A stretch of DNA of 49,166 nt, taken from Promethearchaeota archaeon. Its GTDB lineage: Archaea; Asgardarchaeota; Lokiarchaeia; Sigyniarchaeales; SOKP01. A program made the position numbers and the translations under genes. Positions 20,254-49,166 of the stretch are shown one piece after another (position 1 is the first letter of the stretch; every line of letters begins with the position of its first letter). Under the pieces are notes generated by a model. It had not been told where the DNA came from, did not search any database, and saw nothing but the letters and a program-made list of their open reading frames with translations. The stretch is from NCBI GenBank assembly GCA_013375475.1, contig JABXKD010000017.1, positions 1-49,166 on the forward strand, in the 5' to 3' direction.

Positions 20254-21213
20254 CTAATATTCAATATTCATCTTTTTAACATAATCGAAGGCGGAATAAG
20301 CTGCAATTACCCCTTCTGCTACCCCAGTTATAGCCTGTTTAAATGGTGCGTCCGCAACGTCGCCAGCAGCGAATACTCCAGGTACGTTTGTTTCTGACGT
20401 TCTATTAATAATAATTTCATCTTTATTATTTGTTTTTATACCTATGTGTTTTGCTAGATCTGAGTTAGGATTAGACCCTACTTCAATAAAAACACCATCT
20501 ATTTCAAATTCTGTGCCATTATCGAAAATGACTGCCCTAACATTATTATCCCCTTTAATCTCTACGATATTGGTTCTATAAATGATCTCAATTTTTTGAT
20601 TTGCCTTTACTCTTTTTTTATTTATAGGTTCGGCACGTATTTCTTCTCCTCGATATATGATATACACTTTTTTTACATTTTGAGATAAAAATAACGCTTC
20701 CTTTGCAGCAGAATCACTTCCACCAATCACACATACGGTTTTATCTTTATAAAATGGGCCGTCACATGTAGCGCAATAGGAAACGCCTTTTCCAGCAAAT
20801 TCCTCTTCACCGGTGACGCCTAACTTCTTCCTCTCCGATCCTGTAGCTATAACTACACTTTTTGCTTTAAACTTTTGAAAAAACGAGTGAAGAATGAAGT
20901 AATCACTAGTTTTCTCTATACTTCGAATTTCGTCCGTTATGTAAGGAATGTGCAAGGAATTCATGTGATCCTTAAACATTTCCATCAAACCTTGACCGCT
21001 TGTAGAGGTAATTCCGGGATAATTTTCTACAAGATGAGTTGTTGCGATTAAACCTCCAAAAATTTTACCTATGACTAATACATCTAATGCAAATCGAGCA
21101 GCATAGATTGCACAACCTATTGCAGTTGGACCACCGCCCAAAACAATAAGATCGTAGGTCTTTTCTGGATCAATATCTTCCATTTCTATATTATACATCC
21201 GTAAATCCTCCAT
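20254..21213 (-). CDS. trxB: Thioredoxin-disulfide reductase (low-Mr TrxR)
   Basis: GGGP FAD motif, [21 protein letters not shown] and [11 protein letters not shown]...QAI. Confidence 0.92.
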   Translation of the reverse strand: [319 protein letters not shown]

Positions 21214-27424: not shown

Positions 27425-28465
27425 ATGCCAAAAGAGGTCATCCTAGCGGTATCATATTTTGATACTACTCTCGGACCCACTACTTTACATTGTAGTTCCC
27501 CATTGAATACTCAGGATCATCCCGATTTAGGTAAAATTCTGGAATTCACTGAAGAAGGAACGTTTATATTTACTTTTAGAAAATTTCAAACAATAAATCA
27601 TATTTTTTATATTGACTCAAACCTTGCGCGAGGTGGAAAAGAATTCCTAATGATAACTTACATGATCAGAGCGGCTTACTTCAAAGACGAAATTACAGAT
27701 GTTTACAATTATTTGTTATCTAAAACTCCTGACCTCGAATCTTACGCTTTAGAGCTCAAAAATATTCGAGAAATTACAGAAGTATTACATAGTTATAAAA
27801 ATCATATAAATAAAAAAGAAACTCTTAGTGAAGCACCGAATAAATTTAAAAAACAATTCTTTAAGCTCTTCAACAAGTATCTAGAAAAAATGACCCCTCA
27901 TCTAGATTTATCTACTCATTTATTAGATAAAGGAAATTTAAAAAAGATTTATATTTTTGGTCCTAGAAACGCAGGAAAAACGGAACTCGTTAAAAACTTG
28001 GAGGTTATACAGTTCCTACAATATAAAAATAACAATATGAAGAGGGATTTATCTAGTAAAATTTACGACTTCATAATTGATAACATCGAAGTTTTGACCT
28101 ACGAATGTGTTGATGAGGGTCCAGATGGCGAAAAGACTAAAATGTATGAAGATTGTATAGATAACGCTCAAGGCTTTATTTTAATCTTTAATGCTTCCAG
28201 TAAAGATTCTTTTAAAGAAGCAATCGAAATGTTTCAGTTGGTATTAAATAGATGTCAAGATAAGGAGAATACCCTTCCAATACTTATTATTGGTAATAAT
28301 TTTCACGATAAAGAAGAAATAACGCCTGAGATGATACTTGAGAACTTCGATATGAACGAATTAGCTGAGTGCGGACTATTAATCCAATCTTATTCCATTA
28401 ATGTTCTTAGCGAAAATGAAAAAATTATTGAAGCTATTCGCTGGCTTTTAAAACAAATAATTTAG
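27425..28465 (+). CDS. Longin-like domain fused to a degenerate Ras-like GTPase
   Basis: N-terminal AVSYFDTTLGP; P-loop GPRNAGKT; AQGFILIFN....SF; PILIIGNN. Confidence 0.72.
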   Translation: MPKEVILAVSYFDTTLGPTTLHCSSPLNTQDHPDLGKILEFTEEGTFIFTFRKFQTINHIFYIDSNLARGGKEFLMITYMIRAAYFKDEITDVYNYLLSKTPDLESYALELKNIREITEVLHSYKNHINKKETLSEAPNKFKKQFFKLFNKYLEKMTPHLDLSTHLLDKGNLKKIYIFGPRNAGKTELVKNLEVIQFLQYKNNNMKRDLSSKIYDFIIDNIEVLTYECVDEGPDGEKTKMYEDCIDNAQGFILIFNASSKDSFKEAIEMFQLVLNRCQDKENTLPILIIGNNFHDKEEITPEMILENFDMNELAECGLLIQSYSINVLSENEKIIEAIRWLLKQII

Positions 28466-32366: not shown

Positions 32367-33716
32367 ATGAAAGTTGTAATCGTAGGGAATAATGTCGCTG
32401 GAACATTTACAGCTCAGAATATTAGATATCTTAATGAAGATGTTGATATTGAAATATATACTCAAGAAAGCTATCCTTATTACACACGAGTCAATTTACC
32501 CGAATTAATCCCTGAAAAAGTTCAAATTGATGATTTAATCGTTTTTAAAGATGACTGGTATAAGAATAATAATATAAAACTAAACCTTAACTGTAAAGTG
32601 ATCAAAATTGAACCCGATCAAAAAAATCTCTTTATAGAAGGCCAAAGCAATCCTATTTCTTACGATAAATTAGTATTAGCATTAGGTAGCGTCCCTAATA
32701 TCCCTCCCATAAAAAATGCAAGAGAAATGGTCGGAAAAGGTGTGTTTACATTAAGAACCATTGATGATGCTTTAGAAATCAAGGAATACATTCAAAATGT
32801 CAAAGCGAAAAAGGCTCTTATTATAGGAGGGGGGCTACTCGGATTAGAATTGGCTAACCAAATTAAAAACGCTAATTTAGATACTACGGTCGTTGAATTT
32901 TTTCCACGTTTATTACCAAGGCAGCTAGACGACGAATGTAGTGGCATGTTAAAGAATGAAATTGAATCTAAAGGTATTAATGTAGTTTTAAATGCAACAA
33001 CTGAAGAAATCATGGGTAATGGAGCTGTCACTGGAATTAAGTTAAAAGATGGACAAAGATTTGATGCTGATATTGTTTTAATCCAAGCGGGAATTAGAGC
33101 TACCATCGATCTTGCACAAAACTCCGGATTAGAAACCAATCGAGGCATCATAGTTGATGAATTCTTGGAGACAAGTAAAAAAAATATTTTTGCCGTAGGA
33201 GATTGCGTGGAATATAAAAATCAAACTTGGGGAATTATCCCAGCTTGCATGGAACAGTCAAAAATCGTCGCCGCATCTGTCTTGGGTTTAAAAAAGATAG
33301 AATACAAGGGAACTACACCAAAAAATACCTTAAAAATAGTAGGTATGGAATTAACTTCAATTGGAATTTTTGATCCCTCAAAAGAAGAAGGTGGGGGTTG
33401 GGACATTCTAAAAAGAGCAGATAAGAACGACTGTTGCTATCAGAAATTGATCTTGAAGGGTAATACTCTCAAAGGAGCTATCCTTTATGGAGACAACAAA
33501 GCTATGCCGTTTGTTTATAAAAAAATGGAGCAAGATGTTACCCGAGAAGAGCTTATGGATATTCTTGAGCTATATGTCTATATATGCTCTAATTGCGGAG
33601 CAGAATATGACGAGACAAAAAGGGAAATTCTATTCAAAGATTTACCTGATGATTGGAAATGTCCAAATTGTAAACACCCAAAAGAAGGTTTCAAAAAACA
33701 ACAACATAAAAAGTGA
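32367..33716 (+). CDS. NAD(P)H:rubredoxin oxidoreductase-like flavoprotein with a fused C-terminal rubredoxin
   Basis: FAD/NADH motifs YDKLVLA.GS, GGGLLGLE, IFAVGD; C-terminal CSNC...[13 protein letters not shown]. Confidence 0.9.
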   Translation: MKVVIVGNNVAGTFTAQNIRYLNEDVDIEIYTQESYPYYTRVNLPELIPEKVQIDDLIVFKDDWYKNNNIKLNLNCKVIKIEPDQKNLFIEGQSNPISYDKLVLALGSVPNIPPIKNAREMVGKGVFTLRTIDDALEIKEYIQNVKAKKALIIGGGLLGLELANQIKNANLDTTVVEFFPRLLPRQLDDECSGMLKNEIESKGINVVLNATTEEIMGNGAVTGIKLKDGQRFDADIVLIQAGIRATIDLAQNSGLETNRGIIVDEFLETSKKNIFAVGDCVEYKNQTWGIIPACMEQSKIVAASVLGLKKIEYKGTTPKNTLKIVGMELTSIGIFDPSKEEGGGWDILKRADKNDCCYQKLILKGNTLKGAILYGDNKAMPFVYKKMEQDVTREELMDILELYVYICSNCGAEYDETKREILFKDLPDDWKCPNCKHPKEGFKKQQHKK

Positions 33717-36640: not shown

Positions 36641-37852
36641 ATGTCAAGCTTAGAATTATTAAAAGATGTGTATTATGTTGGATATGTAGACTGGGAAGTA
36701 AGGAATTTTCATGGATATTCGACACATAAGGGTTCTTCTTATAATGCATATATTGTAAAAAGTGGAGATAAAACGATATTAATTGATACCGTAAAAAGGC
36801 AGTACTTCAAGTATTATTTAGAAAACATTCAATCGGTGTGTGATCCAAAAGATATTGATTATCTTATAATGAATCATATCGAACCAGATCATTCGGGGTC
36901 TTTTCCTTTAGTATTGAAGTATTTACCAAATGCTGAGATTATTGCCTCTACAAAGGGGGTTGAAATTTTAGAACAACATTATCACGAAGAAGTAGATAAA
37001 AGTATTTTTGAAAAAATACGAGCAGTAAAAAACGGTGATACTTTAGATGTTGGAAATGGTAAAATTTTTACTTTTGTTCCTATTCCGATGATCCATTGGC
37101 CTGATTCGATGGTTTCTTTTATGAGTGACGAACATGGAAAAAATGTGTTATTTTCCAACGATGCCTTTGGGCAACATTTTGCTGCATCAAAACACTGGGA
37201 TGATGAAAATAAATTTTCAGAAGTAATGTGGGAAGCAGAAAAATATTATGCAAATATTTTGCTTCATTTATCTAACTTAATTGCTAAGACTCTCCCCGTC
37301 GTTGGAGCTTTACCGATAGATGTTATTTGTCCATCACATGGGGTGTGTTGGAGAAAGAATATCCCTGAAATCATAGAAGCTTATACAAAATGGTCAAGCG
37401 GAGAAATTGAAGAAAATTCAGCTGTGATTATCTATGACAGCATGTGGGAAAGCACAACCAAGATAGCGAAAGAATTATACCACGAGATTTGGCGTAGGGG
37501 AATTCCTGTAAAAAGGTTCAATTTAACTTCTTCTGATTATAGTGATGTAATAACTGAAGCAATGAAAGCTAAAGCGATTATTATTGGAAGTCCAACTTTA
37601 AATCGGGGACTATTTCCTTCCGTGGCAGAATATTTGTGTTACCAGAAAGGCTTAAAACCAATGAACAAGGTTGGTTTAGCTTTTGGATCGTATGGTTGGA
37701 GCAGAGGTGCGGTTAGAGCTATAATCAGTGAAATGGAAGCCACTGGAATAGCGATGTTGGACGATTCAATTGATATACAATTCGTTCCAAAACCTAGTGA
37801 TTTAAACTTTAAGGAAATTGTAGACAAATTAGTTAAAAAAATGGAGGTATAA
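36641..37852 (+). CDS. fprA: Flavodiiron protein (FprA/ROO type, class A)
   Basis: FHGY....GSSYNAY, HIEPDH, HWPD, SNDAFG, PSHG; flavodoxin domain SMWEST, GSPT, FGSYGW. Confidence 0.95.
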   Translation: MSSLELLKDVYYVGYVDWEVRNFHGYSTHKGSSYNAYIVKSGDKTILIDTVKRQYFKYYLENIQSVCDPKDIDYLIMNHIEPDHSGSFPLVLKYLPNAEIIASTKGVEILEQHYHEEVDKSIFEKIRAVKNGDTLDVGNGKIFTFVPIPMIHWPDSMVSFMSDEHGKNVLFSNDAFGQHFAASKHWDDENKFSEVMWEAEKYYANILLHLSNLIAKTLPVVGALPIDVICPSHGVCWRKNIPEIIEAYTKWSSGEIEENSAVIIYDSMWESTTKIAKELYHEIWRRGIPVKRFNLTSSDYSDVITEAMKAKAIIIGSPTLNRGLFPSVAEYLCYQKGLKPMNKVGLAFGSYGWSRGAVRAIISEMEATGIAMLDDSIDIQFVPKPSDLNFKEIVDKLVKKMEV

Positions 37853-42318: not shown

Positions 42319-42708
42319 TTATTCGGATTTCCACAATCCATGAAGATTACAATATTCCCTAGCAACGAGACCTGTAGTGTCGCCTACTACAAAGGTTGCT
42401 TCAGGCTTCATTCCAGGAGCTAACATCTGCCTCTTATAGCAGTTGTCTTTGCAGATTAATTCAATCCACATGATGTAATGTTCATTCGTCATTGGATGGG
42501 GTGTTCCCATAGAGATTCCAACATCTACAGTGACTTTATTGCCATCAATTGTTATTTTAGGAACATGCTTTTCGCCCTTCCAATCAGCTGTTTTCGCTTC
42601 CATCAAATTCATCGGTTGTCCACAACATATAGTCTCAGGGACTCCTGGATTAAGAATTTCGACGACTTTACCGCACACTTCACATTTGTAAATTGTTTTT
42701 TGTTTCAT
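42319..42708 (-). CDS. dfx: Desulfoferrodoxin (2Fe superoxide reductase)
   Basis: YKCEVCG...CCG; EKHVP, HPM..EHYI.WI, YCNLHGLW. Confidence 0.95.
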   Translation of the reverse strand: MKQKTIYKCEVCGKVVEILNPGVPETICCGQPMNLMEAKTADWKGEKHVPKITIDGNKVTVDVGISMGTPHPMTNEHYIMWIELICKDNCYKRQMLAPGMKPEATFVVGDTTGLVAREYCNLHGLWKSE

Positions 42709-42808
42709 ATCAAACTTTCACTTCCTTTATTTATGAACAGCGTTGTTTCTAATATTTATAAATTATTATTTAATTATTTTGATTAAATTTTATAAAATAA
42801 TAACTAGT

Positions 42809-43393
42809 TTAGAATTCTTCGCACCTTTTTCTGAAAAAATCTCTTGAATGTGAACAGCTTGGACACTCAAAATCGTCTGGAAGCTCATCTAATTCAACTT
42901 GGTAGCCACATTCGAGACATATCCATACTACTTTTTCTCCTCGTTTGAAGAAAATGTCGTCTCCTACTAATTTTAGTAATTTACCATATCTTTCTGAATG
43001 GTGTTTTTCTGCGAATGCAATGGCTCTAAATCTCTTAGCTATATCAAGAAGTCCTTCCTTTTCCGCGATGTCAGCGAAACCCGGATACATCTCCTTCCAT
43101 TCGTAATCTTCACCCTCAATAGCTGATTTCAGATTTTCTTCTGTAGTTCCATAAGTGGTAGGGCCAGTAGCTTTTATTTTTAACTCTTCAAAAGACTCTT
43201 TTTTTTTAAGATCTTGAAGCATTTTATAGTTCCAACCACCATGCTCTCTTTCTTGATTTGCAGTTTCTTCGAAAATTTGTGATATGAGAACATATCCTTC
43301 TTTTTTAGCGATTGAAGAAAACAAAGTATATCTATTTCGCGCTTGAGATTCTCCCAAGAATGCAGCAAATAAATTTTCAACTGTTTTTTTCAT
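42809..43393 (-). CDS. rbr: Rubrerythrin
   Basis: [17 protein letters not shown]...MY, EKHH..RY; C-terminal CLECG...CPSC. Confidence 0.95.
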
Positions 43394-43608: not shown

Positions 43609-44742
43609 ATGGATAAGAATAATATTATTCAAAATGTTGATGCTTGTATAGATTGCAAAACATGTATGGAATATTGTGATACCTTTATGGTATCAAATGA
43701 TGTATTAAAATCTCCGAACGGGAGATTAAAAATTGCTGAAAAGATATTTACAAATAAAGAAATATCTGAAGAAGAAATTATCGGATTATATACGTGTACT
43801 TTGTGCGCTTTATGTGATTTAGTTTGTCAACAAAATATTTTGATATCTGAAATAATTCATTCCTCTAAAATGGAATTAGTTGAGCAGAATAAAGCGCCTT
43901 TACCTATTCATAAAAAAATCATTAAAGATATTATGGAAAAGGATAATTCTGTAAATGGAAATCCAGACGAGCGCTTAGATTGGTTACCTGAAGAATATAG
44001 AGATGAAGAAGTTTACGAAAACAAAGATTCAGATACATTATTGTTTTTAGGATGTATGTCCTCCTTTCGGGTAAAAGAGAGTGCGAGCGCAGCTTATAAA
44101 ATCCTAAAGGAGTGTAATTACGATTTTAAGATTTTTAAAAGTGAACCTTGCTGTGGAGAATATATATATTCAGCAGGTAATTTAGATCTCTCCAAAAAAG
44201 TATTTCAAACGAATTTGGAACTCTTTAAATCTAATGGAATAAAAAATTTAATCGTTACTTGCGGTGGATGTCTATATGCTTTCGATAAAGTTTACCCTCT
44301 TTATTTGAAAGATTATGATATAAATGTAAGGCACATTATTGATATTATTTATGAATTAGAAAACAAGAAAAAAATTGACTTAACGCCTTTAAATAAATCC
44401 GTTACATATCACGATCCTTGCAGACTTGGAAGAAAATTTAAGAGCGGACCTCTATATACAGAACCTAGAGCGTTATTAAGAAAATGTGGAATAGAAGTAA
44501 AAGAGTTAGCAGAAGATCATAACGATTGTCCTTGTTGTGGGGCTGGATCTGGAATTAGAGGTGTTGATAGTAGTATTAGTATAAAAATTGGGAAAAAAAT
44601 ATTTGAAAAAACCCAAACTAAGGAGATCACATCATCTTGTCCATTATGCATTTTTAATTTTAGATATGTAAATTATAAAACTCAATCAGAAAAAGAAATT
44701 AAATACGTAACAGATTATGTTTTAGAATCCATTAAAAAGTAA
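43609..44742 (+). CDS. HdrD/GlpC-like Fe-S oxidoreductase (2x4Fe-4S plus 2 CCG domains)
   Basis: CIDCKTCMEYC, CTLCALCDLVC; FLGC, EPCCG, CGGC, YHDPC, CCGAG, CPLC. Confidence 0.9.
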   Translation: MDKNNIIQNVDACIDCKTCMEYCDTFMVSNDVLKSPNGRLKIAEKIFTNKEISEEEIIGLYTCTLCALCDLVCQQNILISEIIHSSKMELVEQNKAPLPIHKKIIKDIMEKDNSVNGNPDERLDWLPEEYRDEEVYENKDSDTLLFLGCMSSFRVKESASAAYKILKECNYDFKIFKSEPCCGEYIYSAGNLDLSKKVFQTNLELFKSNGIKNLIVTCGGCLYAFDKVYPLYLKDYDINVRHIIDIIYELENKKKIDLTPLNKSVTYHDPCRLGRKFKSGPLYTEPRALLRKCGIEVKELAEDHNDCPCCGAGSGIRGVDSSISIKIGKKIFEKTQTKEITSSCPLCIFNFRYVNYKTQSEKEIKYVTDYVLESIKK

Positions 44743-44767: not shown

Positions 44768-47155
44768 TTAATAGTTTGTGCTTTTAACACCACCATTTTC
44801 TACAGGATAACCACTTCTGTGCCACATTATCATTCCACCGGTTAAATTTCTGACGTCTTTGAAGCCTGCTCTAGCTAAGAGTTGAGCTGCCATCATCGAG
44901 CGCGATCCACTATGACAAATTACAACAATTTCCTCATCTTTATACTGTTCTAAAGCATCAATTTTGTGCATTAATTCGCCTAAGGGTATCAATTTGGAAT
45001 TTTTTATGTGTCCAGTTCTTCCCTTATACTCTTGTGGTGTTCTTACATCTATTAAAATTGTTGGAACCTCGCCTGAATCCATTCTCTCATATAGTTCATT
45101 CGCAGTTATATTTGATAAGGCAGGTGCTCCTATAGCTCTTATTTGTTTCCTAGTCTTTTTCTCAAGTTTCACTGGCGCTTCAATTTCTTCGCGTGTTGCA
45201 ATACCTTTTTCTAATGTGGCAACTAACTTTCCTTCTTCTTTTCCCAGCGTTAATAACTTAACAGCTTCATTTAATTTTGCGTATGCCTCAACACTGGCTT
45301 TAAATCCTGGATCTGTAGCATATATTTTTAACTTTTTATTCTCGGGCAACATTTCAAGAGATTTTATAAGAGCATTTAAAGGACCAGGACAAGCTAAGCC
45401 AGAAGCATCTATTTCGATATAGTCTTCGGTTATCTTGTGTTTTTTTTCAATAAATTCTTCTATTACTTCTTCGGATGCACCGCACTCAGCAGCTATTTCT
45501 TCAGTTGTAGCTTTAGCTGTTTTATAGAGTTTATATCCACCAGTTAAATTTTTAACTTGATATCCTTTTTGGATTAAGAACCTAGTAGCAAGGTAAGCTC
45601 TGAATCCTACTTCACAGAATAGATAAATATTCTTATTTTGTGGTATTTCATTCAGTCGATTTCTTAACTCTAAATCGCTTATATTTATTGCTCCCTCAAT
45701 AGTCCCAATTTCATATTCATCAGCTGTTCGAACATCGAGGATAATACTATTATTTGATTGTATTTTGGCTAATTCGTTCCAATGCCAGATAGGCATATCA
45801 CCTTTAAGCACATTTGATGCAACAAAACCAGCCATATTCACAGGATCTTTGGCAGAACCATACGGAGGTGCGTATGTAAGCTCAAGTTCCTCTAAATCAA
45901 AAACAGTTCCATCAAATTTCATAACGGTGGAAATTACATCAATTCTTTTTTCTGTTCCCGAGCCTCCTACTGCTTGTGCTCCAAGAATTCTTCCATTTGG
46001 ATTTTCAAAGATGAGTTTTAAAGTTATAGGCACTGCTCCAGGATAGTATCCAGCGTGGTTATTAGGATGAACATATATTTTTTCATATTTTAGTTCAGTT
46101 TTATTTAATTCTTTTTCATTTAATCCAACTGAAGAAACGGTTAAATCGAATACTTTGACGACAGAAGCACCTAACACTCCATTATACCTTGAGTTGCGCC
46201 CAGCTATGACATCAGCGACAATTCTACCTTGTTTATTAGCTGGTCCTGCTAATGGTACTCCAGTTGGTTTTTTTGTAACGAAATTTTTAATCTGAATGGC
46301 ATCTCCAACAGCAAATATTGAAGGATCAGATGTCCTCATTTGCTCATCTACAATAATATGACCTTTAGGACCAATATCTAATCCTGCTTCTTCAGCTAAC
46401 TGATTCTCAGGTTTTACGCCAATAGCTAGTATTATCATATCTGTTTTAATTCTCCCCCCACTCTTAGTGATTACATAATTGAATCCTTCGCTGCTAACTT
46501 CAAAAGAATCTACTGGATCTTCTAACTGTAAACAAACGCCGTTTAGGAGTAATTCTTGGTGCACGAACTGAGCAATTTCCTTATCTAAAGAAGCCATGAC
46601 TTGGTCAAGCATTTCCGTAACCTTTACTTTAATCCCACGATGCCTAAGATTTTCTGCCATTTCTAAGCCAATAAATCCTCCTCCGATCACTGTCGCATGT
46701 TTAACGTTATTCCTCTCTATATGAGATATAATTTTATTAGAATCGGGGATATTTCTTAAGGTAAAAACCGGAACATCGTTCATCCCTGTGAAAGGAGGAA
46801 CAATCGGAGATGCTCCAGGAGAAAGGATAAGATAATTGTAATCTAATTGTATTGTATTCCCGTCTTTTAAATTTTCAACGGTTATATTTTTATTAATTCT
46901 ATCAATGCTTTTTACTTCGTGGTTTATTTTAATATTTATATTAAATCGATCGAGAAATTTCTCTGGAGTCATAAGTTTTAACCGTGCTTCTTCTTTTATT
47001 ACCTGACCAACATAATAAGGTAAACCACAGTTTGCAAAAGAAACAAATGGGCCTCTTTCAAGGACAGTTATTTCTAAATCCTCTCTTAATCTTCTCAGTC
47101 TCGCGGCAGCTGAAGCTCCGCCAGCTACTCCACCAACTATGATTACTTTTTTCAT
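44768..47155 (-). CDS. CoA-disulfide/persulfide reductase fused to rhodanese, TusA and a second rhodanese
   Basis: GGVAGGA, SFANCGLP, GGGFIGLE, YAPP; rhodanese FCEVGFRA; TusA DASGLACPGP; rhodanese ICHSGSRS. Confidence 0.92.
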   Translation of the reverse strand: MKKVIIVGGVAGGASAAARLRRLREDLEITVLERGPFVSFANCGLPYYVGQVIKEEARLKLMTPEKFLDRFNINIKINHEVKSIDRINKNITVENLKDGNTIQLDYNYLILSPGASPIVPPFTGMNDVPVFTLRNIPDSNKIISHIERNNVKHATVIGGGFIGLEMAENLRHRGIKVKVTEMLDQVMASLDKEIAQFVHQELLLNGVCLQLEDPVDSFEVSSEGFNYVITKSGGRIKTDMIILAIGVKPENQLAEEAGLDIGPKGHIIVDEQMRTSDPSIFAVGDAIQIKNFVTKKPTGVPLAGPANKQGRIVADVIAGRNSRYNGVLGASVVKVFDLTVSSVGLNEKELNKTELKYEKIYVHPNNHAGYYPGAVPITLKLIFENPNGRILGAQAVGGSGTEKRIDVISTVMKFDGTVFDLEELELTYAPPYGSAKDPVNMAGFVASNVLKGDMPIWHWNELAKIQSNNSIILDVRTADEYEIGTIEGAINISDLELRNRLNEIPQNKNIYLFCEVGFRAYLATRFLIQKGYQVKNLTGGYKLYKTAKATTEEIAAECGASEEVIEEFIEKKHKITEDYIEIDASGLACPGPLNALIKSLEMLPENKKLKIYATDPGFKASVEAYAKLNEAVKLLTLGKEEGKLVATLEKGIATREEIEAPVKLEKKTRKQIRAIGAPALSNITANELYERMDSGEVPTILIDVRTPQEYKGRTGHIKNSKLIPLGELMHKIDALEQYKDEEIVVICHSGSRSMMAAQLLARAGFKDVRNLTGGMIMWHRSGYPVENGGVKSTNY

Positions 47156-47351: not shown

Positions 47352-48155
47352 TTAGCCTCTATAATCTAAAATGATTACGACATCCACGAAAAGCTCGTAA
47401 TTCTCGTCTTCGTCGTTGTCGTGTATTGTTACCTTTTCAACTTCGTCCAGTTCTCCGTGAACTTCGATAAGATCTGCTTCATGTAATATTTTAACATCCG
47501 AATGCTTAAGTTTCTTCCTTAATTCGACGTTACCGGGGATAGATTTAGCATTTGTTACTAAAATTACTCTTCCAGTGTATTCTGTTAATTTCATTGCGAG
47601 TTCTAAGGAAGCATCTCCCGAGTCAACTACAAGGATTCTTTTTTCTCTAAGTTCCTCCAAATCTGCTGGAACGATATCGTAAACTCCTTTTCCAAAAAAC
47701 TTTTCTATTCCTAATATCACTCGAACACCTATTTGACATGAAGTAGCAATTTCTACTTCTGGAGTCGTACCTAAGCGGTAATTATTAATTGCCGCTTGTA
47801 AAGCATCAGCTGCTAGATTCGAACAATGCATTTTAATCGGCGGAAGCCCGTCTAATTCATCAGCTACGTCTTGTCTCGATATTTTATAAGCTTCGTCAAG
47901 AGTCATTCCTTTTGCCATCTCAGTTATCATTGAAGATGTAGAAACTGCTGATCCACAACCAAATGTTTTAAATTTAATATCATCAATTATCTCCTCTCCG
48001 GCGTCATTTTTACCAACTTTTAAATAGATCCACATAAGATCTCCACAAACTGGATTCCCAACCTGACCGACCCCATCTGCATCTTCTATTTCACCCACAT
48101 TACGTGGATTTTTGAAATGATCTAAAACTTTATCTGAATATTGTGTAGATTTCAT
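47352..48155 (-). CDS. iscU: IscU/NifU Fe-S scaffold fused to a TrxR-like NAD(P)H-binding domain
   Basis: YS.KV.DHF.NPRNVG, GNPVCGD, FGCGSA, LPPIKMHCS; C-terminal ~125 aa aligns with the NADPH domain of the TrxB in this window. Confidence 0.9.
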   Translation of the reverse strand: MKSTQYSDKVLDHFKNPRNVGEIEDADGVGQVGNPVCGDLMWIYLKVGKNDAGEEIIDDIKFKTFGCGSAVSTSSMITEMAKGMTLDEAYKISRQDVADELDGLPPIKMHCSNLAADALQAAINNYRLGTTPEVEIATSCQIGVRVILGIEKFFGKGVYDIVPADLEELREKRILVVDSGDASLELAMKLTEYTGRVILVTNAKSIPGNVELRKKLKHSDVKILHEADLIEVHGELDEVEKVTIHDNDEDENYELFVDVVIILDYRG

Positions 48156-48159
48156 ATTA

Positions 48160-49166
48160 TTATTTCACCTCTTCATTTTTCTTGAAAAAATCAGAAGGCG
48201 TTAAAGGCGACAACTTTCTCAATCTTATTACTTGATCCGGTAATACTTCTAAAAGTTTATCTATGTCAGTTTCACGAGTTGTTCTACCCAAAGAAACTAA
48301 TAGACTTCCATGCGCTTCTTCGTGAAGAAGTCCCATAGCAATTAGTGTGTGGGATGGTTCTAATGTTTTTGAACTACACGCTGAACCAGTAGCGGCGGCA
48401 ATATTGTTTTCTTTTAGCGTAAGAATTAACGATTCTCCTTCAATATAATCAAATCTAAAATGTGCGTTGTGAGGGGTCCTTTTTTCAGGGTGCCCGTTTA
48501 AATACGATTTAGGGATTGTTTCTAAAACGTTTTTGATAAGTTTGTCTCTTAATTTTTTCAACTTCTCTGATTCAGTTGGCATTTCTTCTTTCATGATTTC
48601 AGCAGCTTTTGCAAATCCTACGATCCCTGGAATATTTTCTGAGCCTGACCTAAACCCTCTCTCTTGCCCGCCCCCAATTATTATAGGATTTACTCTCACT
48701 CCTTTTTTCAGGTAAAGTGCTCCAACTCCCCTCGGTCCATAAATATCGTTTGATGAGAGTGTGATAAGATCGATTGGAACTTTTTGAACGTCAATAGGAA
48801 GAACGCTTTCGCTTGCTACTGCGTCAGTATGGAATAAAATTCCCTTTTCTTGAGCAAGTTTACTTATCTCAGCTGTTGGTTGTACTGAACCAACTTCATT
48901 ACTCGCAGTAGATATTGAAATGAGAATCGTCTCGTCGGTAATATACCTTTCAAGTTTGTCTAATCGGACAATACCAAACCGATCTACAGGAACTCTGCTA
49001 AATCGAAATCCTTCTTTTTCAAGATACTTGCCAATATTTAAGATCGAGATGTGCTCTATTTCAGAAATAATTATATGATTCCCTTTTTTTTTTTGTCTCA
49101 TTGCAGCTCCGATTATACCTAAATTATTCGATTCTGTCGCTCCTGAAGTAAAAATGATATCGGCAC
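48160..49166 (-). CDS. iscS: IscS/NifS-family cysteine desulfurase homolog (5'-truncated; PLP Lys replaced by Asp)
   Basis: Frame stays open to the window edge (IFTSGATESNN); IEH, NEVG..QP, GGGQE...RSG, TGSACSS; SSNDIYGPRG in place of S.HK.YGPKG. Confidence 0.92.
   Translation of the reverse strand, partial: ADIIFTSGATESNNLGIIGAAMRQKKKGNHIIISEIEHISILNIGKYLEKEGFRFSRVPVDRFGIVRLDKLERYITDETILISISTASNEVGSVQPTAEISKLAQEKGILFHTDAVASESVLPIDVQKVPIDLITLSSNDIYGPRGVGALYLKKGVRVNPIIIGGGQERGFRSGSENIPGIVGFAKAAEIMKEEMPTESEKLKKLRDKLIKNVLETIPKSYLNGHPEKRTPHNAHFRFDYIEGESLILTLKENNIAAATGSACSSKTLEPSHTLIAMGLLHEEAHGSLLVSLGRTTRETDIDKLLEVLPDQVIRLRKLSPLTPSDFFKKNEEVK

Follow-up and report, generated by a model that had tools for sequence, protein, structure and literature searches.

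The window analysed here is the whole 49,166-nucleotide stretch of contig JABXKD010000017.1 (assembly GCA_013375475.1) of a lokiarchaeal Promethearchaeota archaeon. Near one end of the window, a single uninterrupted reading frame covers 47352..48155 on the reverse strand and encodes a protein in which an IscU scaffold serving iron-sulfur (Fe-S) cluster (ISC) assembly is joined, through a flexible linker, to a degenerate NAD(P)H domain of the thioredoxin reductase (TrxR) type. A preliminary description had proposed such a fusion on the basis of positions 47352-47740, which correspond to the C-terminal ~129 amino acids of the 267-amino acid open reading frame (ORF) plus its stop codon. The fusion and its boundaries are borne out by Pfam, TIGR01292, BLASTP comparison with the TrxB protein of the window and Foldseek, and both protein strings quoted in that description are present in the window. 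The gene comprises the following features:

47352..48155, reverse strand: whole gene, IscU plus degenerate TrxR-type NAD(P)H domain; 267 amino acids plus stop codon at 47352-47354 (Pfam NifU_N and Pyr_redox)
47775..48155, reverse strand: IscU scaffold domain, residues 1-127 (NifU_N, TIGR03419, Foldseek)
47712..47774, reverse strand: flexible linker, residues 128-148 (LGTTPEVEIATSCQIGVRVIL), with C141 at 47733-47735 (translation, pLDDT)
47364..47711, reverse strand: probable relic domain, residues 149-264, with the NAD(P)H-domain fold of TrxR or ferredoxin-NADP reductase (FNR) and without cofactor motifs (Pfam, NCBIfam, BLASTP, AlphaFold, Foldseek)
47607..47624, reverse strand: degenerate dinucleotide-binding loop DSGDAS, residues 178-183, in place of GGGxxA (alignment with TrxRs)

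An IscU domain joined to a degenerate reductase domain

On every feature testable from sequence, residues 1-127 constitute a complete IscU and a member of the IscU family. The domain matches NifU_N (PF01592; Bitscore: 159.1; curated cut-off: 22) and NifU_clost (TIGR03419; Bitscore: 196.1; cut-off: 187.9), and none of the cluster ligands (C37, D39, C67, H110 and C111) is missing, nor does any of them vary across 25 aligned fusions. Foldseek comparison of the IscU half with the structures 7c8m, 7cnv and 4eb5 gave 66-68% identity (target TM-score, TMt: 0.83-0.91; root mean square deviation, rmsd: 1.5-1.9). The fold, the full set of ligands and the position of the gene behind that for IscS are shared with 7c8m, an archaeal IscU, and with 4eb5, the IscS-IscU complex of A. 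fulgidus (TMt for these two: 0.83-0.88), while the additional 140 residues of the window protein, comprising the linker and the relic domain, are seen in none of the characterised IscU proteins. The three-domain NifU likewise joins an IscU-like scaffold to a redox-related domain, and provides a precedent for built-in accessory functions in the relevant passages of a review (PMC13066941). The extra domains of NifU are, however, a ferredoxin-like [2Fe-2S] domain and an Nfu domain rather than a TrxR-type domain, and the window protein aligns to the three-domain profile over residues 5-127 only (TIGR02000; Bitscore: 154.8; cut-off: 273.3). By these profile comparisons it is not a three-domain NifU.

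Stand-alone IscU proteins of 118-140 amino acids are found in the same genome and in many archaea. The copy in the genome of the window (contig C243, L002:1516-1872) is 118 amino acids long as called, is not located beside IscS and is flanked by genes for a metallo-beta-lactamase-fold protein and a heavy-metal P-type ATPase, while two more distant NifU_N-like genes are found on contigs C210 and C266. In two other genomes of the phylum (L041:1501-1866 and L038:152-514), stand-alone IscU paralogues are without the first ligand cysteine (GNPADGD) and also lack the histidine of the His-Cys pair (NECSNL, MECSNI), and these may represent degenerate scaffolds.

The ~21-residue linker contains one cysteine, the extra residue in ATSCQ pointed out in the preliminary description and here numbered C141. 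Among 97 unique C-terminal halves drawn from 125 full fusions, the linker spans 22-33 residues when counted from residue 126 and carries exactly one cysteine in 90. This cysteine precedes G149 by 9-10 residues in 79 sequences and by 3-4 residues in eight. The cysteine is missing in the remaining 7/97, namely five bacterial forms and two of family f3, and its conservation is as such a property of lineages rather than a universal one. The tail domain proper is free of cysteine in 94/97 relatives.

The tail (GIEKFFGKGVYDIV...VDVVIILD) shows homology to a single part of the TrxR protein. The following ordinary TrxR of the window served as comparator only:

20254..21213, reverse strand: TrxB, 319 amino acids, with the redox-active motif CATC

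BLASTP aligns residues 9-121 of the tail with residues 133-245 of TrxB (23% amino acid identity over 114 residues; e-value: 2e-8). Pfam Pyr_redox (PF00070; cut-off: 22) is matched at 26.2 bits by the whole protein and at 28.3 bits by the tail alone, which is evidence of domain homology, not of function. The thioredoxin-disulfide reductase profile (TIGR01292; e-value: 5.7e-12) aligns residues 146-262 to positions 116-232 of its 300, a stretch confined to the NADPH domain; a full-length match is not reached (Bitscore: 45.1; cut-off: 343.45), and Pyr_redox_2 also remains below its cut-off (PF07992; Bitscore: 17.8; cut-off: 26.1). Among solved structures the best match by sequence is the TrxR 4a5l (chain residues 128-228; e-value: 1e-6). 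An AlphaFold model of the tail alone is confident (predicted local distance difference test, pLDDT: 88.3; predicted TM-score, pTM: 0.83), and its top Foldseek matches in the PDB are TrxR, TrxR-like, FNR and AhpF chains only (query TM-score, TMq: 0.76-0.84; rmsd: 1.6-2.9; 117-125 alignment columns; e-value: ~1e-10). The expected TrxR NADPH fold was thus recovered. Look-alikes of the tail in the ESM Atlas comprise generic Pyr_redox clusters alone (score: 0.92-0.95) and add nothing further. In the full-length model both domains are confident, while the overall pTM is 0.49 and residues 134-144 have a pLDDT below 50, so that the predicted protein is best pictured as two beads on a flexible string.

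In alignment with TrxRs, the tail domain starts and ends exactly where the NADPH domain exits from and re-enters the FAD domain. The same boundaries and fold are found in low-molecular-weight TrxRs, AhpF and TrxR-type FNRs (TIGR01292; PDB 2zbw, 4a5l, 3ab1 and 2q7v), but beyond this fold the tail has none of the hallmarks of a low-molecular-weight TrxR, lacking the FAD domain, the CxxC, the GxGxxA loop and the HRR motif. No FAD-binding domain is present in the protein, the tail domain being preceded by the 21 linker residues and followed by three residues, and no redox-active CxxC is present, with GKGVYDIVPADLEE aligned to the CxxC segment of TrxB. The HRR motif for the 2'-phosphate is replaced by VTNAK (T-N-A-K at the motif position), and the glycine-rich loop reads DSGDAS at 47607-47624. 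The losses listed in the preliminary description, of CxxC, intact loop and FAD domain, are consequently all found. Position 178, which corresponds to the first glycine of the dinucleotide-binding fingerprint, is never a glycine in the 97 unique relatives (D in 79, H in eight, E in six, Y in two, F and N in one each). The altered loop is kept in its new form, with G180 conserved in 94, D181 in 81 and S183 in 94 of the sequences, as are the further tail positions T201 (95) and K204 (84).

As neither a flavin domain nor a CxxC nor an intact GxGxxA loop is present, the tail is predicted to be incapable of transferring hydride or reducing disulfides. Canonical NAD(P)H binding furthermore looks unlikely, since the first glycine of the fingerprint is replaced in 97/97 sequences. 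The TrxB comparator itself deviates from the canonical enzymes, with GGSDSA and YRGEEIRA in place of GGGNSA and HRRDxFRA, and its preferred nucleotide may not be NADPH.

Distribution of the short fusion and its relation to long fusions

When 400 genomes of the phylum were searched with the tail alone (e-value ≤ 1e-8), matches were found in 216, a number which includes two f11 genomes with ordinary TrxRs of 312-338 amino acids and six f21 genomes with the long form of the fusion described below; the listed open frames are mostly 258-302 amino acids long. The short form, as found in the window, is represented in families f1 (114/134 genomes), f3 (9/14), f4 (4/4), f5 (2/3) and f7 (2/2), while three further families account for 73/89 genomes, nearly all of them belonging to f31. 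Four large families have no tail match (f13: 0/31; f15: 0/12; f18: 0/12; f19: 0/19). With the whole protein as query, the top 120 related protein clusters all measure 263-274 amino acids (78-100% amino acid identity; 99-100% coverage), those with names being NifU proteins of Lokiarchaeota or Promethearchaeota. A scan of one genome per species identified 211 relatives. The 80 retained are mostly Promethearchaeota/Promethearchaeia by name, but also Helarchaeota (L133 and L141) and Thorarchaeota (L143 and L145-L147), and a few are labelled Hermod-, Odin- or Hodarchaeota; one, labelled Bathyarchaeota (L137), is a 63-amino acid fragment at a contig end. The full fusion is present in 125 of the 127 loci examined, with no truncated IscU-only derivative among them.

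An exhaustive, profile-free search of the tail against 1.84 billion representatives yielded 111 proteins (e-value ≤ 0.001). The 22 examined, 20 of which were among the best 35, are mostly short fusions or their fragments, many of the latter starting at the internal methionine of MHCSNL, together with a few odd contig fragments. Complete short fusions also occur in metagenome-assembled genomes (MAGs) labelled Aerophobetes, Deltaproteobacteria, Thermodesulfobacteriota and Stahlbacteria, with tail identities of 47-54%. Five such bacteria-labelled genomes each carry 2-8 sigma-70 genes, and two contigs with the fusion, of 45 and 48 kb, are truly bacterial, encoding also RuvB, RsmE, YebC, TrkH, histidine kinases and a sigma-54 response regulator. 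A further locus (L072, labelled Nanopelagicaceae; 84% identity; GC content: 0.34) was set aside as a probable mis-binned contig. The preliminary description had raised the question of whether the fusion exists only in this assembly, and it is present in hundreds of independent ones. As the same ~260-amino acid form recurs in 216/400 genomes (the f11 and f21 cases apart), named archaeal MAGs and some sediment bacteria, the fusion is real and not an assembly artefact.

The f21 genomes (6/6) matched the tail weakly, and in the genome examined, G117, the match lies inside a 448-amino acid ORF (L062:5001-6344, forward strand). The protein combines NifU_N with a complete Pyr_redox_2 domain (profile positions 1-291 of 291), the flavoprotein part having the FAD-binding GGGPAG at its start and GD at its end, and a gene for IscS lies nearby. 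Of its best 120 relatives, 116 share this combination at 433-454 amino acids (P0232-P0350). Their source names include Jordarchaeaceae, Methanoperedens, Methanosarcinales, Methanosarcinaceae and ANME-2 (Methanocomedens), long forms also being found in Jord-/Freyarchaeia, and they are named NifU, 'IscU 2' or 'thioredoxin reductase'. One source lists a 326-amino acid 'NAD(P)/FAD-dependent oxidoreductase' which is identical to the C-terminal 73% of the L062 ORF, although the 448-amino acid frame contains no stop. None of eleven long forms (L062 and ten others) has a CxxC at the TrxR position. The Methanoperedens proteins retain GGGNSA or GSGNSA, and one of three also HR-x-D-E-L-R-A. The long forms look like working reductases and are candidates for a built-in electron donor for Fe-S assembly.

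Several features place the tail beside the NAD domains of these long fusions. A profile of the short tails scores 59-98 bits against long-fusion NAD domains vs 41-80 bits against the stand-alone TrxRs sampled, the latter range leaving out P0171, which is apparently a fragment of a long fusion. When 47 NAD domains are placed in a maximum-likelihood tree, all 22 short tails fall into a single clade (support: 100/100; stem length: 0.95) which joins the eleven long-fusion domains and one apparent long-fusion fragment (96/95), with the 13 stand-alone TrxRs set apart. Short and long forms have the motifs VEKV and the acidic EDE-x-[YF]-E-L-x-V-D in common, and the IscU halves of both carry GCGSA and an N-terminal extension of 4-5 residues, whereas stand-alone IscU proteins have GCGAA and start with MYS. 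The two forms therefore share the IscU subtype, sister NAD domains, motifs and the absence of CxxC, and differ in that the long fusions keep both FAD segments and the GxGxxA loop while the window protein has the NAD-domain part only. Judged from these comparisons, the relation is one of descent and not of shared architecture.

In all known proteins of the TrxR family the NADPH domain is inserted into the FAD domain, and an isolated NADPH domain would for this reason derive from a complete enzyme. With the NAD domains of IscU-complete TrxR-like fusions as its nearest relatives, the tail is most likely the relic of a built-in reductase. The most economical history would be that IscU became fused once to a TrxR/FNR-like reductase devoid of CxxC, and that both FAD segments were later lost in one lineage. 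The domain which the preliminary description regarded as repurposed is accordingly recast as what is most likely the remnant of a lost reductase, not a newly recruited module.

Gene neighbourhood of the fusion

Two genes on the same strand adjoin the fusion in the window:

48160..49166, reverse strand: IscS/NifS-type cysteine desulfurase, 334 amino acids seen, cut by the contig end (Aminotran_5; Bitscore: 200.5)
44768..47155, reverse strand: 795-amino acid CoA-disulfide-reductase (CoADR)-like flavoprotein with rhodanese, TusA and rhodanese domains (Pfam); candidate partner

The IscS stop codon lies 4 nt before the start codon of the fusion. The contig ends inside the IscS gene, so that any genes further upstream lie beyond it. 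Among 17 diverse short-fusion loci, IscS is located directly upstream in 16, a gene for a DsrE-like protein of ~120 amino acids precedes IscS in 12, and TusA is encoded among the three upstream ORFs in four. The combination of a TusA and a ~120-amino acid DsrE-like protein with a VCEASK cysteine before IscS can be observed in L065:2679-3326, L059:2645-3339 and L061:3023-3707, among others, and suggests that the operon also feeds a persulfide relay. The 795-amino acid CoADR-rhodanese-TusA-rhodanese protein is encoded downstream of the fusion after a gap of 196 nt, and as in the window, a CoADR-rhodanese-TusA gene is found within three ORFs downstream in 2/17 loci (adjacent in L065, third in L064). 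This protein resembles the NADH-dependent persulfide reductases. It is a possible functional partner of the fusion, through which persulfide sulfur could be brought to the cassette or taken from it.

In two bacterial loci (L148:1401-3811 and L149:5086-7493) the cassette consists, in order, of a CoADR-like gene, a 120-amino acid protein-encoding gene, IscS, the fusion and a copper ATPase, and the 120-amino acid protein shares 73% identity with the DsrE-like protein of a lokiarchaeal locus. The simplest reading is that the cassette has likely been transferred horizontally between Asgard archaea and sediment bacteria. A DsrE-like neighbour gene is present in 202/400 genomes, for the most part in families with the short fusion (f1: 109/134; f3: 10/14; f4: 4/4; f5: 3/3; f7: 2/2). 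It is, however, also present in 15/19 genomes of f19, a family without the fusion (0/19), and is often unlinked, including the copy on contig C240 of the same genome. The co-occurrence is therefore suggestive at most, as related genomes are not independent.

Metatranscriptome contigs of at least 85% likeness, which may derive from DNA in such libraries and do not show transcription, include one of 260 nt spanning the IscS-IscU junction with a single difference and one of 194 nt covering the 3′ end of the tail with 24 differences; no contig listed for the four runs bridges the junction between IscU and the tail.

The wider window is rich in genes for oxygen defence and redox functions (32367-33716, 36641-37852 and 43609-44742 on the forward strand; 42319-43393 on the reverse strand), with products comprising an NADH:rubredoxin-oxidoreductase-like protein with a C-terminal rubredoxin, a flavodiiron protein, desulfoferrodoxin, rubrerythrin and an HdrD-like CCG/4Fe-4S protein, and the Fe-S assembly operon thus lies within an oxidative-stress neighbourhood. 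A separate gene of the window (27425-28465, forward strand) encodes a 346-amino acid protein whose C-terminal half matches small GTPases of the Arf/Ras family, preceded by an N-terminal extension of ~170 amino acids without a family match.

Proposed role of the tail

Among 17 close relatives, the median dN/dS is 0.04 for the IscU domain, 0.14 for the linker and 0.11 for the tail, as calculated from the 28/136 pairs with dS below 1.5 in both domains. Nine tail positions (G149, G157, R173, R196, V197, S219, G234, Y253 and D258) are invariant in all 97 unique sequences. The tail is clearly under purifying selection and therefore still does something. Of the repurposed docking or nucleotide-sensing domain envisaged in the preliminary description, the repurposing finds indirect support in this constraint, while the nucleotide part fares less well in view of the fingerprint glycine replaced throughout.

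The best explanation of the fusion gene is that it encodes the scaffold of a two-gene IscS-IscU system of the minimal ISC ('MIS') type. On balance, we consider it probable that its tail is the relic of a reductase which has been kept as a non-catalytic interaction or regulatory module. Persulfide sulfur would pass to the IscU half from IscS, whose gene ends 4 nt upstream, and clusters would be built on C37, C67, C111 and H110. The tail would be a pseudo-reductase retaining the NAD(P)H-domain fold of a low-molecular-weight TrxR- or FNR-like flavoprotein. Its ancestor would most likely have been an IscU fused to a complete flavoreductase, both FAD-domain segments of which were lost; NAD(P)H binding and electron carriage would also be gone. 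What remains may be a tethered, acidic protein-interaction or regulatory module, a non-catalytic role proposed because of the purifying selection, the invariant residues of the tail's own, its acidic surface and the flexible, mostly single-cysteine tether. A docking or regulatory role specifically is a more tentative proposal, for which we see slightly less than an even case: the tail might dock on IscS or on a partner from the cassette (the DsrE-like protein, TusA or the CoADR-rhodanese protein) and thereby steer the delivery of sulfur or electrons to the scaffold, possibly with involvement of the linker thiol, which, in lineages where it is present, could assist as an auxiliary residue in persulfide handling or as a ligand.

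The acidic partners of IscS in the bacterial ISC system use one surface of that protein. Like the acidic accessory proteins which bind there (ferredoxin, CyaY/frataxin and IscX), the tail is strongly acidic and is tethered by a scaffold that binds IscS, and it could act in a comparable way, but it has no sequence or fold relationship to any of them. A considerably more speculative proposal, which we regard as unlikely when taken as one joint reading, is that the tail and its single-cysteine tether are a built-in stand-in for the accessory proteins missing from minimal IscS-IscU systems: the acidic module would occupy the IscS surface used by ferredoxin, frataxin and IscX, the swinging linker thiol would help to resolve the persulfide and, by thiol chemistry, pass sulfide onto the scaffold in place of the flavin route of the long form, and the set of DsrE-like protein, IscS and IscU-relic, with or without the CoADR-rhodanese protein, would form a self-sufficient, horizontally mobile cassette for Fe-S and sulfur trafficking in Asgard archaea and sediment bacteria.

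Several observations weigh against the interpretation of the tail as a non-catalytic relic module. Its net charge of -12 in the window (median: -9), vs -5 for the NAD domains of long forms and -2 for those of TrxRs, comes from a comparison of small sets of related sequences. The loop keeps G180 and S183 (each in 94/97) together with conserved aspartates at positions 178 and 181, and could in its altered form serve as a non-canonical phosphate-, metal- or ligand-binding site, while Pyr_redox still scores above the Pfam cut-off. As it is missing in 7/97 relatives, the linker cysteine cannot, on this sequence evidence, be essential to the core function of the family. Concerning descent, the NAD-domain trees are unrooted and sample 13 stand-alone TrxRs, and the direction from long to short would follow from parsimony and the insertion topology of the family. 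The IscU-domain tree (51 rows), with an unresolved base, stand-alone IscU proteins at 80/44 and short and long forms in four unresolved groups, is consistent with, but no independent proof of, a single fusion event.

The retained loop is also the starting point for the alternative that the tail is a ligand sensor, binding NAD(P)H, ADP-ribose-like compounds, CoA or a metal via the D-x-G-D-x-S loop and tuning the scaffold to the redox or metabolic state. The intact Rossmann-type fold, the Pyr_redox match and the conservation of the loop in its new form (D178 in 79/97, G180 in 94, D181 in 81, S183 in 94, T201 in 95 and K204 in 84) are consistent with such a role. The first glycine of the fingerprint normally lets the pyrophosphate approach the N-terminus of the helix, however, and in all 97 sequences it is replaced by a different, mostly acidic or bulky residue; with the HRR 2'-phosphate motif also gone, we consider a sensor unlikely. 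Slightly less likely still is an oligomerisation module which would pair IscU proteins and so allow two [2Fe-2S] clusters to be combined into [4Fe-4S]. The long ancestor was probably dimeric through its FAD domains, as are TrxRs, but it is precisely these domains that make the TrxR dimer interface and that are missing here, and nothing in the sequence points to self-association. A predicted homodimer of two tail copies scored 0.02 against a mark of 0.42, which weighs neither for nor against. An archaeal holo-IscU dimer has been proposed as a step to [4Fe-4S] in the pertinent passages of the review cited above (PMC13066941).

That the tail is a functionless vestige yet to decay would agree with the loss of all catalytic motifs and with the long branch (0.95) leading to the short clade. 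It appears highly improbable against a dN/dS of 0.11, nine invariant positions, the retention of the full-length domain by several families of the phylum as well as by bacteria, and the lack of IscU-only derivatives among the 125 full fusions in 127 loci. An assembly chimera or a private loss of a stop codon can be dismissed, being refuted by the recurrence of the same uninterrupted frame in the best 120 clusters, 216/400 genomes and 80 named genome records of many studies.

The short fusion represents a genuine, widespread IscU variant, undescribed so far. Full-text literature searches found neither the short nor the long fusion described, although the supplements of the Garcia et al. MIS/SMS paper could list such architectures; the passages on the subject in PMC6857552 contain no mention of the fusion, and the long fusions appear uncharacterised. 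Minimal IscS-IscU (MIS) is presented, in the sections of the review concerned with it, as the least studied system of Fe-S biogenesis, for which neither carrier nor chaperone nor electron donor is known and whose self-contained function 'remains to be validated' (PMC13066941). An E. coli strain devoid of ISC and SUF has been used in work on SMS (PMC12192291). The proteins described here form a natural series, from IscU alone, through IscU with a complete flavoreductase (Methanoperedens, ANME-2 and Jord-/Freyarchaeia), to IscU with a dead NAD domain, the last type being represented by named MAGs of Promethearchaeota, Helarchaeota and Thorarchaeota and by some bacteria. With this series, the electron supply of minimal ISC systems can be tested directly: the electron input still missing for persulfide reduction has a direct candidate in the long form, while the short form would be a conserved pseudoenzyme whose retained function can be addressed by deletion. 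The relic gives a hint as to the way in which minimal systems for cluster assembly were once supplied with electrons. Furthermore, the short fusion is near-universal in the lokiarchaeal family of the window (114/134 genomes), and must therefore be taken into account whenever Fe-S biogenesis is reconstructed for the archaea related to eukaryotes.

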